Of a stretch of DNA of 24,589 nucleotides, positions 2,772 through 16,651 are shown piece after piece (positions within the stretch are counted from its first letter, which is position 1; each line of letters begins with the position of its first letter). The notes under the pieces are model-generated. The model searched no databases, was not told where the DNA came from, and saw nothing but the letters and a program-made list of their open reading frames with translations. The stretch covers positions 1 to 24,589 of the forward strand of contig JBDLRP010000005.1 in assembly GCA_039799905.1 (NCBI GenBank). Reading direction: 5' to 3'. Source of the stretch: Pseudomonadota bacterium (GTDB lineage Bacteria; Bdellovibrionota_B; Oligoflexia; Silvanigrellales; Silvanigrellaceae). The position numbers and the translations under genes are program-made.

Positions 2772-4634
2772 ATGCTTGAACGTGATAAGTTTTCATCGAA
2801 TGCAGTCATTAAGGTTATCGGCGTCGGCGGTGCTGGCGGAAACGCAATCAACACGATGATCGAACAAGGCCTTTCGGGCGTTGAGTTTATCGCAGCGAAC
2901 ACCGACGTGCAGGCGCTTGCCTCCAATCTCGCGCCAGTCAAAATTCAGCTCGGCCGCGAACTCACCAAGGGCCTCGGAGCTGGTGCTAATCCGGAAGTAG
3001 GCCGTGATGCTGCTTTGGAAGATAAAGCAATTATTCAAGAAGTTCTCTCCGGTGCTGATATGGTCTTCGTAACAGCGGGTACAGGCGGCGGTACTGGTAC
3101 CGGTGCGGCTCCGATTATTGCCCAAGTCGCGCGAGAAATCGGTGCACTGACCGTCGGCGTTGTCACTAAGCCCTTTTCTTTCGAGGGCAAGCGCCGAAAA
3201 ATTCATTCCGAACAGGGAATTCAGTCTCTCAAAAGCTGCGTCGACACCCTCATCACAATCCCCAATCAGCGCCTGCTGAGCATCGCGCCGCCGCAAATGT
3301 CGATGCTCGATGGTTTCAAGCTCGCGGATGAAGTCCTGCTCAATGCGGTGAAGGGAATTTCAGACATCATCAATATTCCGGGCCGCGTTAACGTGGACTT
3401 CGCCGACGTCCGGACGATCATGTCCGAAATGGGTATGGCACTTATGGGTATCGGCACCGCCACTGGCGAAAGCCGTGCTATTGAGGCCGCACGTGCAGCA
3501 ATAAATTCACCTCTTCTCGAAGATGTCGACATCGAGGGAGCGACTGGAATTCTCATCAACATCACCGGCAGCAGCGGCATGACACTGCATGAAATCAGCG
3601 AGGCCTCTACGCTTATTCAGGAAGCTGTTCACGAAGATGCAAATATCATCTTCGGCTCGGTGGTCGACGAAACGATGGGCGACACTCTACGTGTGACGGT
3701 GATTGCAACCGGCTTCGATCATGCACGCGTCTCACTGCCAGACTCCCATAACAAAATGTATCCGACGGCCGGTGCTGGCTATGGTTACCAAAACGTGAAT
3801 GGAATGGCCGCGACAGGCCATAACCAGCCCTACGGTGCTGCTCAGCCTGCTCATAACCAACGCGGCGGCGTCAACAACTACGGTTATGGCAACGGCCAAA
3901 ATGACCCCCGCCATGCGTCGATGAATCAGAATTCGCAGGCTATGGGACGCAATGACGGCGGACACAATAGCCGCTCGCAAGGCAACCATTTGTCCAACCA
4001 CGGGCAAATAAACCAGCAGCAGCCACAGCATCCGGTCGCTGCGGGTCTCTCGCTTCGCGCACCGTACGAAGTTGGTCAGCCCATCAACAACAACTTCCGC
4101 CGGACGGACGGCTTTCATAACCAACAAACAGACTCCGCAAATCTGAGTTATGGTCGTCAGAATCAACAATCGAGCAACCTCGGCGGCGGCTCCACAACGT
4201 CCTCCAATCAGCAACAATCACATCAGGCCATTGCACTTCAAAACGCTGCGCAGACTGCACACCAGCTGCGCACGGCACTGGCAAGCAACTCGGGTAGCGA
4301 GAATCTGGAAACGAACGCGGGCGACCATGGCAATAACCGCACAACTCAGCTTGGTTCGAAGAACGAATTCGAGGAATTGACCCAATGGACACTCGAGCTG
4401 TCTCGTCAGGCCAACGGGGAAGCGTCGACGGTCTCTGAATCCTTAAGCCACAACGTTGCAGATCCGCTTGCTGGTCTCGCAGATGAACTCAGGAATTCGC
4501 CAAGCGATGAAAGCGATAACGACCGTGCGTTGCGACTCGCGCGTGAACTTGCAGACATCACTCCCGATGAAGGTGATTTCGAGACTCCGGCTTTCCTCCG
4601 CCGCAAAGATGATTCCCTCAATCGCCCTCTTTGA
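2772..4634 (+). CDS. ftsZ: Cell division GTPase FtsZ with a very long C-terminal linker
   Basis: [27 protein letters not shown] and TVIATGF motifs; conserved C-terminal peptide [11 protein letters not shown]. Confidence 0.99.
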
Positions 4635-7361: not shown

Positions 7362-7802
7362 TCAACGACCCGTCGCGTGCAGCGCGGCTGCCTCAATTCT
7401 GGCCATTGCACGTGACTGAGCGGCCACGGCCTCGTGAACCTCTTCCGGAGTCCCGTTGCCTGAACCCACAGTCAACTTCTCACGAGCTTTCTCCAGTGCC
7501 CTCTGAGCACGGCCGACATCGATTGAAGCCGCATCCTCAGCGACGTCCGCCAGCAATGTGACCGACTTGCCGTCAACTTTGCCGATACCGCCAGATATGG
7601 TCAGAAATGACGTCACGTTGTTTGTTTCATAATAAACAATGCCGGTACCCAGCGCGCAGACTAAATCCGCATGTTCGGGCAAAATTCCAAGCACACCCTG
7701 TGCACTTGGAAAGTGCACAGCCGAACAGCCAACCGACTCAACCACACGCCGCGTGGGCGTGAGGACTGTCAGTTGAATCGGGTATTGTTGCGTCGATTGC
7801 AT
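7362..7802 (-). CDS. atpC: ATP synthase F1 epsilon subunit
   Basis: LTVLTP, GVLGILPEHA, ISGG and LADVAE..IDV.RA motifs; follows atpD. Confidence 0.95.
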   Translation of the reverse strand: MQSTQQYPIQLTVLTPTRRVVESVGCSAVHFPSAQGVLGILPEHADLVCALGTGIVYYETNNVTSFLTISGGIGKVDGKSVTLLADVAEDAASIDVGRAQRALEKAREKLTVGSGNGTPEEVHEAVAAQSRAMARIEAAALHATGR

Positions 7803-7831: not shown

Positions 7832-10207
<2,376 letters not shown>

Positions 10208-10218
<11 letters not shown>

Positions 10219-11728
10219 TGGCGTCAAACCTCTTGGCGAATGCCTCTAGGCCAGCTTTAACCTTGGCTTGAAGCTCATTGCTCATCTTCTTGCCATTGCC
10301 AATCTCGTCGAGGTCGGCACGGTGATTTCTTTCGAAATAATCGAGCATTTGTGTTTCAAATTTACCAACGTGACGCACGTCAACCTCGTCCATCGCACCG
10401 CTTGTTGCAGCAAAAATAACAAGGATCTGCTTCTCAACAGGCATCGGGTTGTACTGAGGTTGCTTGAGGAGTTCCATAAGACGCTGACCGCGGTTGAGCT
10501 GACGTTTGGTCACTGCATCAAGGTCAGAACCGAACTGCGCAAAAGCAGCCAATTCGCGGTACTGAGCGAGCTCGAGACGCAAGCTGCCGGCAACCTGCTT
10601 CATAGCGCCAATCTGTGCCGAACCACCCACGCGGGAAACCGACAAACCGGCGTTAACAGCTGGACGCAGACCCGAGTTGAAGAGATCCGCCTCGAGGTAT
10701 ATCTGACCGTCGGTAATCGAAATCACGTTGGTCGGGATGTAGGCCGACACATCGCCCGCCTGAGTTTCGATGATGGGGAACGCAGTCAAACTGCCCGCGC
10801 CAAGTTCGTCGTTCAGCTTGCACGCACGCTCAAGAAGACGGCTATGCAGATAGAACACGTCACCTGGGTATGCCTCGCGGCCTGGAGGACGGCGCAGGAG
10901 TAGCGAAAGCTCGCGATAGGCCTGAGCGTGTTTGGTCAAGTCGTCATAGAAGATAACGGCGTGTTGACCGTTGTCGCGGAAATACTCGCCCATGGTGCAA
11001 CCGGAATACGGTGCAAGGAACTGAAGTGGCGCGGGGTCAGATGCACCGGCGACGACGATAATGGTGTATTCAAGCGCGCCTGCTTTGCGCAGCTTTTCGA
11101 CGACCTGCGCGACTGTCGAAGCCTTCTGGCCGATAGCAACGTAGATACAAACGACGCCCTTGCCTTTTTGGTTGATGATTGTGTCGAGAGCAACGGCTGT
11201 CTTGCCTGTCTGACGGTCGCCGATGATGAGCTCACGCTGTCCGCGACCAATTGGAATCATGGCGTCGATGGATTTAAGACCCGTCTGGAGCGGCTCATGG
11301 ACGCTCTTACGAGCCATAATGCCAGGTGCCTTAACCTCAACCACAGAGGTTGCATCAGCCTTCACAGGGCCCATTCCGTCGAGCGGCTCACCCATCGCGT
11401 TCACAACGCGACCGAGCAAACCACGGCCGACAGGAACGCGGTTGATTTCAGAAGTACGCTTGACCGTCATTCCCTCGCGGATCTTGTCGGCCTCACCGAA
11501 GATCGCAACACCGACGTTGTCCTCTTCGAGGTTCAAAACCAGTCCCTTGGTTCCATTTTCAAACGTGACTGTCTCAGACGTCATGGCCTTATCCAGGCCG
11601 TAGACGCGTGCGATACCGTCTGCGACTGAAACAACTGTTCCGGTTTCGGCGACTTCAGCAGTCTGTCCGAGAGCCTGAATTTTTTGTTTCAGCAACTGGC
11701 TGATTTCATCAATGCGAATCTGTTCCAT
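10208..11728 (-). CDS. atpA: ATP synthase F1 alpha subunit
   Basis: [23 protein letters not shown] and SVSRVG motifs. Confidence 0.99.
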
Positions 11729-11731
11729 CTC

Positions 11732-12277
11732 TTAGACTCCCTGACTCAAAAATTCTTTAAGGTTTGAAAGACGCGTTTTAAGACTCGCATCAATCTGTCG
11801 TGTTCCAATTTTAACAACCATACCGGCACGCAATTGCGGTTCAGTTTCACACTCAAAGATCACAGTACGGCCCATGGCCTGCGACAACACTTTTTCAAGC
11901 TCGGAGATCTCTGCGGCAGACAACGGGGTGGCAGAGCTAATCTGGCCACGGACGACGTTGTTGTGAGTGTCGATTTTCTCCAGAACCTTCTTGAGAACTG
12001 TCTTGAGGTGCGACAGGCGGTTGTTTTGCGCCATCAACATGAGCGCACGCGACGTCTGCTGGCTCAAATTCAGTTTTTCTGAAATTAACTGAATCAGTTG
12101 TTCTTTCTCATTCTGGCTGCGTGCAGGGCTTGAAAAAAACAACTCGATTTCGGACGTCAAAATTGCAAGCAGTGCGCCGGCTTCCCGAGAAAGCGTATCG
12201 ACGCTTTTCGATTCAACCGCACTTTCAAACAGCGCCGTTGCATACCTGCGCGACAGCTGTCCAGAACTGACCTTCAT
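11732..12277 (-). CDS. atpH: ATP synthase F1 delta subunit
   Basis: RRYATALF, SATPL and IDASLKTRL motifs; position upstream of atpA. Confidence 0.95.
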   Translation of the reverse strand: MKVSSGQLSRRYATALFESAVESKSVDTLSREAGALLAILTSEIELFFSSPARSQNEKEQLIQLISEKLNLSQQTSRALMLMAQNNRLSHLKTVLKKVLEKIDTHNNVVRGQISSATPLSAAEISELEKVLSQAMGRTVIFECETEPQLRAGMVVKIGTRQIDASLKTRLSNLKEFLSQGV

Positions 12278-12298: not shown

Positions 12299-13303
12299 TC
12301 AGTGAGACGCAGAAATTTTTGTTGAACTTTTCAAGCTAACAAGCGCGTTTTGACGCAGTGACGCATCGATAGACGCAAGCGTTTCACCCTTGAGCTTGGC
12401 GTCAAGTGTTGCAACGACCTGATCGAAAATTTCTCTACGCAGTTGCTCTTTGCCCTCGGCTATCAACTGCCGTCCGATACGGTCCGCATCACGCAAAAGC
12501 TGTGCAGCTGACTCTTTCGCCTCACTGATCAGCTTGTCGCGCTGCGCGACTCCGTTATCCGCATATTCTTTACGAAGTGCGTCCAATTCGCTTTGCAGGT
12601 TCTTGAGCTTGGCCTCGTATTCGTCACTCTTCCTTTGCGCAAGTGTCATCGCTGAGCGCGCTTCCGACAACTTGGTTCTCAGTGCATCTCGACGGTCGTC
12701 GAGCATTTTCGAGACTGCTTTTTTTGCAAGAAACGTCAGCGCGGCTGCGAAGACAATAAATTGAAAGTAGGGCCAAAGAATTCCGTAAACCGGGTCGACG
12801 GCACCGCCTCCGCCGGCCGCAAGTGCGCTGCCAGCAACAACAGATGCGCCCACTGCGATGACAACAACAGAGTTCTTTGCAAGCTTGGCCAGAACCGTCT
12901 CAGACAAGTCCGCGACAATGCTTGGGATCTTGCCTCTCTCCTGCGTGACCTGAGAGCTGATTTGAGTTCTGACTTCCTGCAGTTTAGCCTTGGCGCTTTC
13001 GTGAGCTTCCTGAAGAATTCCGGATGCTTCAGCCTGTCCTGCGAGGATTTGATTGTTCAGCAGGTCGCGCGCCTCTGTCAAAGCCTCTTGGTGCGCGGAC
13101 GTATAGGTTTTCTCGAGACGTGCAAGCTTTGATTCCAAGCCCTTAGCTGCATCCACTGCCCCAGCTGTGCGCTTGCGGCGTTCGGCGGTCAGTGCCAAAA
13201 GTGGCTTTACTAGCAGGAAATAGGAACTGGCGAGGGCAGCGAGGTAGAACCCTCCCTCAACAACCATCGGAATAAGTTCGGGTTTTAGTTTTAGTTCCGC
13301 CAT
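12299..13303 (-). CDS. atpF: Fused ATP synthase peripheral-stalk subunits b' and b
   Basis: Two tandem TM + ER/DRR + coiled-coil units (aa ~10-140 and ~172-334) in one 334-aa frame, at the position normally held by atpF' and atpF. Confidence 0.88.
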   Translation of the reverse strand: MAELKLKPELIPMVVEGGFYLAALASSYFLLVKPLLALTAERRKRTAGAVDAAKGLESKLARLEKTYTSAHQEALTEARDLLNNQILAGQAEASGILQEAHESAKAKLQEVRTQISSQVTQERGKIPSIVADLSETVLAKLAKNSVVVIAVGASVVAGSALAAGGGGAVDPVYGILWPYFQFIVFAAALTFLAKKAVSKMLDDRRDALRTKLSEARSAMTLAQRKSDEYEAKLKNLQSELDALRKEYADNGVAQRDKLISEAKESAAQLLRDADRIGRQLIAEGKEQLRREIFDQVVATLDAKLKGETLASIDASLRQNALVSLKSSTKISASH

Positions 13304-13469
13304 TTATTTTCCCTTGTTTTGGGCATCTAACTAATTTGAATCAGGCGCCATGGGGCCGTTCGGCGGTTTCTTACTGTTTAGTTTTAAGCTGCGCAAGTGC
13401 TCGGAAGACGCAAGGCTGACAAAGATTTTCTGGCTCTTTTGCATGGACGGATGGCCAATCCGCCCATGC

Positions 13470-14336
13470 TCAGGCCGAGGGCGTTGACTCGGTAAAAAGC
13501 TCGGCAACATTGAGTAGTTCAGCCAACTGCAAATGAGCCTGGAGGGTGGACCGCGAAACCTTGAGGATTCGACTTGCCTCGGCTTGAGTCACGCGCCTCC
13601 CGTGAAACACGTAATGGGTCAAGGACGCCTTCAGCGCGTCATGTGGGTCGTTGCACCGGAGGACCCTGTCGAAGAGGCCTGCGACCGCGTGAGCTTTTTC
13701 TTCCGCCGCTGCGGTTTCTCTTGCTGCAATCCGGCGCCGCGTGGTTGCGGGCGGCTGCGAGAGGCGGCTTTCAAGAAACTCGGTCGCACCCTCGTCTTCC
13801 CCCCTGAAGCCCGAACGATAGGCAACCTGAACAATTGAGTCGAAGAATAATTCGTGACCATGAACGTCGAGGATTTTTCTGAGCGCGGTCATTTTTTTTC
13901 CGTCGAAGGCATCCATATATCGGCTCAGGTTGGCCCTCTCCAGAACAAGGGAAACCATTTGAGCTGCACTGGGAAAGAGACTCTGGAGCGGTGGGAGCTC
14001 AAAGGGAATTGAGCCACAGACAGGGTGTGGACTCTCTCGGACCAGGGAGAGCGTCGGCAAGCTCACGCGATTCGGGTCGGCTTTTAGGTGGGCGGACTTT
14101 TGCATCGATTGGACGCATTGTCCCTGCAGGTCATAAACTACGATCTGACAAGGGCTTCGCATGGTGAAGAAATCGTCGGTGGTAAGAAAATGAGCGACCG
14201 TCTCGGCCAATGCTTCCTCTTGGACGACAAGAACAACGTCAAAGCCGCTTTCGAGAGCCGAGCTCCAGCGCTGCAACTCCATTTCAAGGCGGCGTTTGAG
14301 GACTGGGAGCAGGTAGCGGGCGATTGATTGATTCAT
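13470..14336 (-). CDS. Hypothetical DNA-binding protein with a C-terminal Fis/NtrC-like HTH
   Basis: Strong RBS GAAGGAGA; C-terminal TQAEASRILKVSRSTLQAHL HTH pattern. Confidence 0.65.
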   Translation of the reverse strand: MNQSIARYLLPVLKRRLEMELQRWSSALESGFDVVLVVQEEALAETVAHFLTTDDFFTMRSPCQIVVYDLQGQCVQSMQKSAHLKADPNRVSLPTLSLVRESPHPVCGSIPFELPPLQSLFPSAAQMVSLVLERANLSRYMDAFDGKKMTALRKILDVHGHELFFDSIVQVAYRSGFRGEDEGATEFLESRLSQPPATTRRRIAARETAAAEEKAHAVAGLFDRVLRCNDPHDALKASLTHYVFHGRRVTQAEASRILKVSRSTLQAHLQLAELLNVAELFTESTPSA

Positions 14337-14500: not shown

Positions 14501-14662
14501 ATGTCAAGCTTTTGTCTGGCCGCGAAACGACAGCAGAAAATAAATTAGGTCCCCGCCCGCCTTGCGAGTGCCCCGATCTCCGATGTAAGAAGGCCGTACA
14601 GACAAAAAATTCCATTCGGAATGACGATCGAATGCCAAGTCGGGCGACACGGAGGCAACCAC

Positions 14663-15493
14663 ATGGCAGATGCTAGAGTTATCGCGCTTTCCAATCAGAA
14701 AGGCGGCGTTGGTAAAACCACAACCGCGGTCAATATCGCAGCGTCCTTGGCAGCGGCTGAGTACCGCGTGCTCCTTGTGGACTTCGACCCACAGGGCAAC
14801 GCATCCAGTGCACTTGGAATAGAGGCTCGAACACTTAAGCCGAGCAGTTACGAGATGCTCATTCAGGAGGCCATGCCAGTCGATTGCATAGTCAAGACTG
14901 AACTGAGCTATCTAGACCTCATCCCGGCCAATCAAGAACTCATTGGTGCCGAGATTGAGCTTGTCTCAGCACTGGGCCGCGAACACCGTCTCAAGGACGC
15001 ACTGAACCTCGTCAAGGACAAATACGATTACATCTTGATCGACTGCCCACCGGCGCTCGGCCTTCTCACGGTCAATGCACTTGTAGCCGCCCACGGAATC
15101 CTCGTACCACTACAGTGCGAATACTTCGCGCTCGAGGGACTTTCGCAGCTGATGAAGACAGTCGAATTGGTCAAAAAATTCTTGAACCCAACCCTCGAAA
15201 TCGAGGGAATCCTGTTGACCATGTTCGACCGCCGCAACAACCTCTCCCATCAAGTCGAAGTCGACGTTCGTGAACACTTTAAAGAGATTGTTCTGAGCAC
15301 GAAGATTCCGAGAAACGTAAAACTGGGTGAAGCGCCGTCGCACGGAAAGCCGATCATCCTCTATGACATTTCCAGCCCCGGTGCGTTGTCGTACATGGAG
15401 GCGGCACAGGAACTACTTGCTCGCACCCAGCTCAAAAGAAGCGCGCGAAACTCGTCACACAACGTCAACCAAACTACAAACGCACATCCATAA
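14663..15493 (+). CDS. parA: Chromosome partitioning ATPase ParA/Soj
   Basis: NQKGGVGKTTT, DFDPQGNA, IDCPP and EAPSHG motifs. Start set at ATG 14663 after GGAGG. Confidence 0.97.
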   Translation: MADARVIALSNQKGGVGKTTTAVNIAASLAAAEYRVLLVDFDPQGNASSALGIEARTLKPSSYEMLIQEAMPVDCIVKTELSYLDLIPANQELIGAEIELVSALGREHRLKDALNLVKDKYDYILIDCPPALGLLTVNALVAAHGILVPLQCEYFALEGLSQLMKTVELVKKFLNPTLEIEGILLTMFDRRNNLSHQVEVDVREHFKEIVLSTKIPRNVKLGEAPSHGKPIILYDISSPGALSYMEAAQELLARTQLKRSARNSSHNVNQTTNAHP

Positions 15494-15508
15494 CCAGGGA
15501 GGTCATGA

Positions 15509-16651
15509 ATGCAAAAAAAACCGAATGGACTCGGCAGAGGACTTGGAGCGCTGCTCAACCCAGAAATGCTCAAGGCGCAGCAAGCAGCCAGCCTGAGTCT
15601 TGGAAATGTAAGTCCGAAAGAGGATGCCCCACTGGTCTCCCCAACCGAGCGCGCTCAGAAAATCAATACACTTCCGAGCAAACCAGCGAAGGCCACAAAC
15701 GAGCCTGCACAAGCCGAAGTCTTGGCTCATGCGAAGCCAATAACGTCACTTTCTGAAATCAAAACTGAAGACCTGATCTCCCAAACAACACACGGCAACC
15801 AAAAAAAAGAACAGGCCGTGCTTTTGATCTCGACGAGCCAATTGTCGCCGCTCGTCGACCAACCACGAACAGAGTTTTACAGCTCAACGCTCGATGAACT
15901 TGCTGTGAGCATCAAAAACTACGGCATTCTTCAGCCGATTGTTGTTGCGCCCACAGACCAACAGGGAAATTACACAATCATCGCCGGCGAGCGGCGCTGG
16001 AGGGCTGCACAGCTCGCCGGACTCGAGACTGTGCCCTGCATACTTCGTCAACCCACCGAACACAGTTCACTTGAGTTGGCCTTGATTGAAAATATCCAAC
16101 GCGAAGAACTCAGCTCACTCGATGAAGCGAGAGCTTTTTCGAGGTTGATTGACGAACACTCGTACACACAGGACACCCTGGCCTCGAAGGTTGGCAAAGA
16201 CCGTGCGACCATCGCCAACAGCCTGCGTCTTCTGAGCCTACCGCCTGAAATTCTCGCCGACCTTCAGGCAAAGGTGCTTACAGCCGGACACGCACGCGCA
16301 CTTTGTTCGCTCGATGAGAAAAAAATGCAGCTCAAAGTTCGCGACATGATTGTTTCAAAGAAACTCTCTGTCCGGCAAACTGAAGACATAGTAAAAGAAC
16401 TCAAAAAGGACCGTGACTCCAACGAGCCTGCTGGAACTTCCCAACTGTCCCCAGATTTGCGTCACCTCTGCGACCAATTCAAAGGACATCTCGGAACGAA
16501 AGTGCGAATCTCGGGAACTGCAGAACGCGGAAAGATTGAGATCAGCTACTATACATTTGAAGATCTCGAACGAATTGCGGAATTGATGCTTTCACCGGGT
16601 CTGAACCCACGCCGGCCTCTCGAGCCGACACACCGCGGGACAGCACCTTAA
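15509..16651 (+). CDS. parB: Chromosome partitioning CTPase ParB/Spo0J
   Basis: LGRGLGALL ParA-activating peptide, GILQPI, IIAGERRWRA, ENIQRE and the HTH TQDTLASKVGKDRATIANSLRLL. Confidence 0.97.
   Translation: MQKKPNGLGRGLGALLNPEMLKAQQAASLSLGNVSPKEDAPLVSPTERAQKINTLPSKPAKATNEPAQAEVLAHAKPITSLSEIKTEDLISQTTHGNQKKEQAVLLISTSQLSPLVDQPRTEFYSSTLDELAVSIKNYGILQPIVVAPTDQQGNYTIIAGERRWRAAQLAGLETVPCILRQPTEHSSLELALIENIQREELSSLDEARAFSRLIDEHSYTQDTLASKVGKDRATIANSLRLLSLPPEILADLQAKVLTAGHARALCSLDEKKMQLKVRDMIVSKKLSVRQTEDIVKELKKDRDSNEPAGTSQLSPDLRHLCDQFKGHLGTKVRISGTAERGKIEISYYTFEDLERIAELMLSPGLNPRRPLEPTHRGTAP

Follow-up and report, generated by a model that had tools for sequence, protein, structure and literature searches.

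The window, the whole stretch of 24,589 nucleotides analysed here, belongs to a freshwater member of the family Silvanigrellaceae (order Silvanigrellales) and carries on its reverse strand an ATP synthase operon of the arrangement atpF'F-H-A-G-D-C (Table 1). Its first gene encodes the b' and b subunits in one open reading frame (ORF), whose translation (P0001) runs over 334 codons with no internal stop and is matched twice by the profile PF00430, with 42 bits in the b half and 29.1 bits in the b' half (cut-off 28). The preliminary description of this DNA, which had placed b' and b in one frame with no separating stop, was thereby borne out. Each half comprises a transmembrane (TM) helix followed by a long helix and the gene lies upstream of atpH, as in the F-type b/b' family, with a single ORF in place of two separately translated chains. 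The NCBIfam b profiles fit residues 160-312 and the b' profiles residues 22-143, the latter being matched by positions 19-140/141 of the b' profile PRK08476. Residues P8, Q16 and P34 are conserved around the predicted b' TM helix, and W177, Y179, Q181, F182 and K195 are invariant around that of b. A profile search of the assembly, which is 94% complete, returned no other PF00430 gene, leaving the fused gene as the only one of the b family, and atpB and atpE were located on another contig (G000:C13; L151:1210-2061 and L151:2288-2599). Databases name fused proteins of this kind 'subunit b' or 'hypothetical protein', so that these genomes appear to be without b', an annotation that the fusion corrects.

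Table 1. Features of the fused gene and of the atp operon in the window.
Feature	Position	Strand	Remarks
Fused atpF'-atpF ORF (P0001)	12299..13303	-	334 aa; first gene of the atpF'F-H-A-G-D-C operon
Shine-Dalgarno-like AAGGGA	13310..13315	-	precedes the single start codon
b' moiety, residues 1-141	12881..13303	-	N-terminal TM helix and long cytoplasmic helix; full b' length
Predicted b' TM helix, about residues 10-33	13205..13276	-	from sequence; boundaries estimated
Basic end of b', K140-L-A-K143	12875..12886	-	placed as n-region of the internal signal
Hydrophobic core V146-V156	12836..12868	-	h-region of the linker
A160-L-A162	12818..12826	-	predicted signal peptidase I site, cut after A162
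b moiety, residues 163-334	12299..12817	-	PF00430, 42 bits; predicted mature N-terminus AGGGG
Predicted b TM helix, about residues 172-193	12725..12790	-	from sequence; boundaries estimated
atpH (delta)	11732..12277	-	separate gene; PF00213
atpA (alpha)	10208..11728	-
atpG (gamma)	9271..10227	-
atpD (beta)	7832..9244	-
atpC (epsilon)	7362..7802	-

A purine run similar to AAGGGA precedes the start codon in 12 aligned genes of the genus. Further upstream, at about 13400-13370 on the reverse strand, the same 12 aligned genes share a TTGC-like hexamer followed by AAACT-AACAGTAAG, a block that looks like the promoter of the atp operon and was not among the sites listed by a consensus promoter scan. 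Directly upstream of the fused gene lies an ORF of 288 aa (13470-14336, reverse strand) with no Pfam match and a helix-turn-helix-like C-terminus, possibly encoding a lineage-specific regulator of the operon. Of 31 loci, 30 have a C-terminus of this type ahead of the fused gene, the L002 locus being cut short; in the genome with a split gene described below (G021) the homologue lies on the same contig at a distance of about 46 kb, and this query detected no homologue in three genomes outside the order. The parA-parB pair (14621-16651, forward strand) is transcribed away from the atp operon here, and in G026 and G052 parB shares the strand of atpF' and immediately precedes it. FtsZ (620 aa; 2772-4634, forward strand) has a low-complexity C-terminal region of about 290 aa, rich in Gln, Asn and Gly.

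The fusion is characteristic of the order Silvanigrellales, in which 33 of 34 genomes match the protein and 32 of these 33 are fused at the junction. One complete stop-free ORF over both halves is present in 31 of the genomes, at 21-74% identity to that of the window; in G003 the gene is broken by contig ends, with the junction intact and in frame, and G021 is the only matched genome with a split gene. No match to the fused protein was obtained in G048, which is 85% complete. Among the 97 other genomes of the class, of which 90 match, the matches listed, which are all but the 31 weakest rows, include no stop-free one across both halves; a 324-aa open frame in G052, outside the order, was rejected as a fusion, since a stop separates two genes there. 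In most of the split relatives inspected, b carries no leader; a separate b preceded by a leader was seen in G027 and in G029, where it ends ILA-AGGG. Other N-termini were also seen among separate b proteins: those of G064-G066 (L082-L084) bear a long acidic, His-rich extension, repeat-like and of variable length, with no hydrophobic leader, and in sister families (L042, L043, L045 and L047) many leaderless b genes appear to start with GTG or TTG (VEHF, LEEF, VENY).

The fused gene is found in two single-contig genomes (G041 and G045) and in the isolate Fluviispira multicolorata. Contigs of two sequencing runs from different studies, X2 (possibly near the source of the window) and X3, span the whole ORF with no indel; these are the two that do so among four other runs, X5 and the RNA run X14 falling short of the junction. 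Neither of two arrangements that had been named beforehand as speaking against a fusion was thus encountered: the spanning contigs of X2 and X3 show no stop or frameshift at the junction, and close relatives do not all have separate genes, 32 of 33 being fused.

The junction itself reads K140-L-A-K-N-S, then V146VVIAVGASVV, AGS and A160-L-A162, followed by AGGGG, at 12886-12803, just as first described, together with a TTG at L133 and a CTG at L138. In all its parts this linker resembles a signal peptide. The net charge ahead of the hydrophobic core is at least +1 in 30 of the 31 genomes with a complete fused ORF, giving a basic n-region; the 8-residue hydropathy of the core, 3.06 in the window and 2.79 in the median of the 31, is that of an h-region, and the core window holds no charged residue in 17 genomes, one in 13 and two in one. 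Alanine occupies position 160 (-3) in 29/31 and position 162 (-1) in 27/31 aligned genomes, and since all four Ala codons are in use at these two positions, the constraint acts on the protein. Across the 31 genomes the mean share of the top residue is 0.28 in core columns vs 0.53 in the b' helix and 0.58 in the b helix, the distance from K140 to A162 varying between 20 and 27 residues. Identity within the genus falls from 0.50 in residues 111-141 to 0.20 in 143-159, then rises to 0.58 in 160-162 and 0.86 in 169-195. These sequence comparisons show that the linker evolves like a signal peptide, its core drifting while Ala160 and Ala162 are held. In principle the A-x-A motif could have been inherited without being used, though its retention against the drifting core argues otherwise.

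The linkers were also scored with a custom signal-site rule (a hydrophobic stretch, small-x-small and a polar spacer), which is not SignalP. It was positive in 22 of the 31 linkers and negative in nine, compared with a mean of 4.6 (maximum 10) in shuffled sequences, a difference whose significance is overstated by the kinship of the genomes; after either true TM helix it was positive in none of the 31. A leader matrix was trained with 25 N-terminal leaders, all from separate b proteins. Its top-scoring site in the entire protein fell within the linker window in 29/31 genomes, of which two, with a score of 0.1 at the edge of that window, do not have a genuine site there. For the protein studied here the best site was ALA162-AGGG, with a score of 15.7; across the 31 genomes the best site is an A-x-A in only 12, so that the aligned register is picked only in part. 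A classical Sec/SPI signal peptide would stand at the N-terminus, and this element is internal (residues 140-162), so the linker works like a signal peptide at most. A lipoprotein (SPII) signal was not found, as A163 rather than Cys stands at +1 in P0001 and no Cys column is conserved in the 31 genomes; nor was a Tat signal, there being no RR in the P0001 junction and no conserved RR column.

A natural experiment is provided by G021, a genome of 1.8 Mb from the same genus as 11 fused genomes, which nests within the fused clade of the b'+b tree (clade support 98, inner forks 86-88; FastTree). Its b' ends three residues past the conserved KLG, and its b begins at an ATGA overlap with GGAG eight bases upstream; the core, A-x-A and spacer are missing, so that fission removed exactly the linker. 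A single sequencing error cannot produce this arrangement, and a second representative (P0058) has a 151-aa b' ending in the same way. The fission shows that the functional units can be two chains, with boundaries near those that the cleavage model described below predicts.

Fused proteins also occur far from this order. A profile search was run over 1.84 billion representatives, and 88 of the best 150 proved to be fused, 28 grouping with Silvanigrellales and 60 not. The latter share only 19-30% identity with the protein of the window and have the same type of linker; two PF00430 stretches each were found in the four scanned, and in a fifth. The leader matrix finds the linker in 23/28 and 58/60 of these two sets. 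An earlier site-picking rule gave A-x-A in 18/31, 9/28 and 29/60 (the 31 genomes and the two sets, respectively) vs 7.3, 4.3 and 15.3 in shuffles, often choosing sites within the core; its control after the b TM helix was positive in 0/31, 1/28 and 9/60. A further search with one distant group returned 120 hits, of which 83 are at least 290 aa long, some from metagenome-assembled genomes source-named Deltaproteobacteria or Thermodesulfobacteriota. All 83 pass the signal-site rule vs 9.0 in shuffles and none after TM helices, as members of one related clade, and an N-terminal leader was detected by the same rule in 26 of the 37 shorter hits. A cluster search (Atlas) on P0039 gave b-family clusters only. 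Three other forms were noted in passing: P0034 (180 aa, ending after a linker-like stretch) and P0232 (189 aa, beginning at the end of b') could each be a fragment or another split gene, and P0265 (261 aa, PF00430 and PF00213), among the relatives of the second fused group, is a b-delta-type fusion.

As to the number of origins, the tree of b alone needs eight fused/split changes, only two of which are forced by its starred branches, and a single clade of all fused forms was not rejected in the AU test (p 0.07). The free tree search was itself beaten by a constrained tree in a second test and was thus imperfect; with that p value, the trees do not establish a recurrent origin of the fusion. 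The b'+b tree, whose split references come from one class only, cannot count origins.

The arrangement can be compared with several known systems. It shares with the heterodimeric b'/b stalk (chloroplast 6fkf, chains b and p) the two PF00430 halves, each of one TM helix and a long helix, and the position at the head of an atpH-A-G-D-C operon, and differs in being one ORF. In the PDB no single chain aligns continuously to both halves; the b-family chains that match have 129-222 aa. With b proteins carrying a cleavable leader (P. denitrificans; P0242 of Geomonas sp. RF6; G029) it has in common the core, the A-x-A, a short spacer rich in Gly, Glu and His, and the b TM helix, but the leader here lies within the chain, lacks its own start codon and bears a whole b' on its N-terminal side. 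FbcH of Bradyrhizobium japonicum, in which cytochromes b and c1 are said to be encoded by one ORF and separated by signal peptidase at an internal signal, is the closest parallel: here too one bacterial ORF holds two subunits of a respiratory complex with an internal signal between them. The fission in G021 yields, by another route, the two products that cleavage would be expected to give. The upstream product of FbcH is polytopic and can keep a membrane tail, whereas the C-terminus of b' must reach the top of F1, so that a second cleavage step is called for, unlike in FbcH. The mycobacterial b-delta fusion links parts that adjoin each other at the stalk top, and it remains uncut. That protein (NCBIfam PRK13428, 'subunit B/delta') is likewise a gene fusion within the ATP synthase stator; in the present case delta has its own gene, and two parallel partners are joined head to tail. 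In the cleavage of RseA and of remnant signal peptides by RseP, a periplasmic cut leaves an N-in/C-out stub and a cytoplasmic domain is freed (PMC7728848, PMC9360617), as proposed here; the known outcomes are signalling or disposal, and here an essential enzyme would receive one of its structural subunits in this way. Signal-peptidase processing of a bacterial polyprotein is reportedly known already. No report of a b'-b fusion or of a signal-peptidase-processed ATP synthase polyprotein was found in literature whose coverage leaves out most subscription journals, and the terms ATP synthase and atpF are absent from the Spirobacillus genome paper (PMC12321486).

On the sequence evidence, we propose that the fused protein is a precursor matured by two successive cuts, a reading to which we give a probability of about 0.6. 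The chain would insert as three membrane segments (the b' helix N-out, the linker N-in/C-out with K140-K143 acting as its n-region, and the b helix N-out), and signal peptidase I would cut after A162 on the periplasmic side, releasing mature b (163-334). This first cut, which parallels bacteria where b carries its own leader, is very probable. The putative b' product would then be tied to the membrane at both ends, the stub being a remnant signal peptide of type II. Cleavage of this stub near the cytoplasmic face by RseP or a similar protease would give a b' of about 143-150 residues, and b' and b, made 1:1, would form the usual parallel stalk. The fusion probably came about when the stop codon of b' and the start codon of b were lost, the old leader of b being kept as the linker. 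Proteolytic maturation by signal peptidase I, possibly followed by RseP, had been put forward from the window alone, and it fits all the comparative tests as a predicted cleavage.

Background on each step is available in part. The b subunit of P. denitrificans loses residues 1-17 by intact mass, the protease responsible going unnamed in the paper (PMC4593670). RseP is described as removing remnant signal peptides (PMC7728848) and as cutting type II (N-in, C-out) substrates once a periplasmic cut has been made (PMC7728848, PMC9360617, PMC12445088). The topology of an RseP substrate, an N-in/C-out stub with little periplasmic tail, is also the one predicted for the linker.

Signal peptidase I is encoded in all five genomes tested, the split one included, and the same five exceed the cut-off for TIGR00054, which we take to be the RseP family. 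The control genomes encode RseP in 14/14 and signal peptidase I in 13/14 cases; both proteases being near universal, their presence is weak evidence and only permits the model. Further leaders of the same kind were read in Fo: subunits a and c of this genome start with basic-hydrophobic-AFA leaders, and a or c leaders occur in five other genomes read, with none on the a of G025 (the a of G041 and of G021 lay outside this comparison). Together with the linker of b, all three Fo subunit types would depend on signal peptidase.

When the b' and b halves were given as separate chains, a complex prediction weakly supported their pairing, with a score of 0.42 (best control 0.00) that may reflect likeness to solved stalks; the mark for such scores is reached by 116 of 157 solved pairs and two of 215 mismatched pairs, and scores over it of at most 0.60 comprise 18 solved pairs and both mismatches. 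The runs agree in at least 91% of contacts, with pLDDT of at least 78. In the AlphaFold model of the fused chain, helices cover residues 10-133, 181-304 and 307-332, pLDDT in the linker is below 50, and residues 139-182 are not placed. Foldseek found no match of this model in the PDB at E <= 0.001, only generic coiled coils.

The best-surviving alternative, unlikely in our view, retains the first cut and dispenses with RseP: signal peptidase I would free b, and the b' tail would be extracted during assembly and pack on F1, or be trimmed by some other protease. Everything that speaks for the A-x-A site applies equally to this case, the cores are short, with Ala, Gly and Ser often abundant in them, and RseP enters the two-cut proposal by analogy with its known substrates. 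A docking surface on F1 would be expected to be conserved, however, whereas core identity is 0.20 within the genus. Gene fission, moreover, deleted the tail from b' (G021, P0058), and remnant signal peptides are normally cut by RseP (PMC7728848).

That the protein is never cut and forms a non-canonical stalk, the third option of the preliminary description, is improbable. The top of b' would have to unfold back to the membrane, or a b2 stalk be built from two chains whose b' halves are held down along the membrane. In hydrophobicity the linker equals a TM helix (19-residue hydropathy, median 1.59 vs 1.51 for the real b TM helix), so that a lasting TM segment is possible on that ground, and the distal part of b' (111-141) is less conserved within the genus than the proximal part (0.50 vs 0.67). 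The held alanines at -3 and -1 in a drifting linker would nevertheless be left unexplained. The b' half is of full length, its end aligning gap-free with helix ends in solved structures of b and of mycobacterial stalk chains, and it is about as conserved as the b half (0.53 vs 0.58). Geometry also disfavours an uncut chain. In the established structure b and b' run parallel, anchored in the membrane by their N-termini and reaching close to the top of F1 with their C-termini. By helix-rise arithmetic, b' residues 34-141 span about 160 Å as a helix, and the 30 residues 142-171 reach at most about 110 Å; an uncut linker is therefore too short for the canonical arrangement.

It is very improbable that no protease is needed, b being made from an internal start codon or promoter, or b' being released by programmed frameshifting. 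A GTG at V169 is found in 6/12 genes of the genus and an ATG at column 172 in several, and the window has a promoter-like site at 13081-13052 inside b'. None of these signals is conserved, and internal starts, frameshifting and internal promoters were accordingly rejected. Between residues 105 and 178 every column has ATG, GTG or TTG in at most 11/31 genes, a value equalled by V119 inside b'; re-initiation at L133 or L138, considered at first, fails in the same way, with such codons in 9/31 and 6/31 genes, like other hydrophobic columns. The window's gene has GTC at V169 and GTT at V172, and its junction, where no good ribosome-binding site had been seen, indeed lacks a start codon with a good Shine-Dalgarno; 15/31 genes, this one included, have no such codon at a Shine-Dalgarno energy <= -4 in the junction. 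A strong internal initiation site, which would have spoken against maturation, is thus not conserved among the 31 genes, and even if b were initiated internally, b' would still emerge fused to b. Slippery heptamers occur in 6/31 junctions vs 25/93 background windows, stops in the other frames lie anywhere from 0 to 87 codons away, and conservation at third positions (0.31-0.37 vs 0.29-0.34) shows no clear rise. Promoter-like sites were found in 5/31 genes, at scattered places. An assembly or sequencing artefact joining two overlapping genes has a negligible chance, since, although the window comes from a 52-contig assembly and the b' and b genes do overlap in G021, the ORF is complete and stop-free in 31 genomes, among them the two single-contig genomes and the Fluviispira multicolorata isolate, and is spanned free of indels by two other runs.

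The wider reading, whose chances we consider even, is that several lineages build their stator as a two-cut polyprotein in which regulated intramembrane proteolysis (RIP) makes a structural subunit and can gate assembly, with repeated gain and loss of the fusion and precise deletion of the linker on fission. As b and b' are textbook parallel partners, an origin from a single chain is unexpected. If the two-cut model is true, membrane "clean-up" proteases help to build an essential enzyme: an intramembrane protease would gain a constructive role, the b':b ratio would be fixed at 1:1 by translation, and a viral-style polyprotein route would enter ATP synthase biogenesis. The model is accessible to experiment, as the cultured Fluviispira multicolorata carries the fusion, and, should it hold, these bacteria would be a natural setting in which to study the reason for the cleavable leaders on many Fo subunits.
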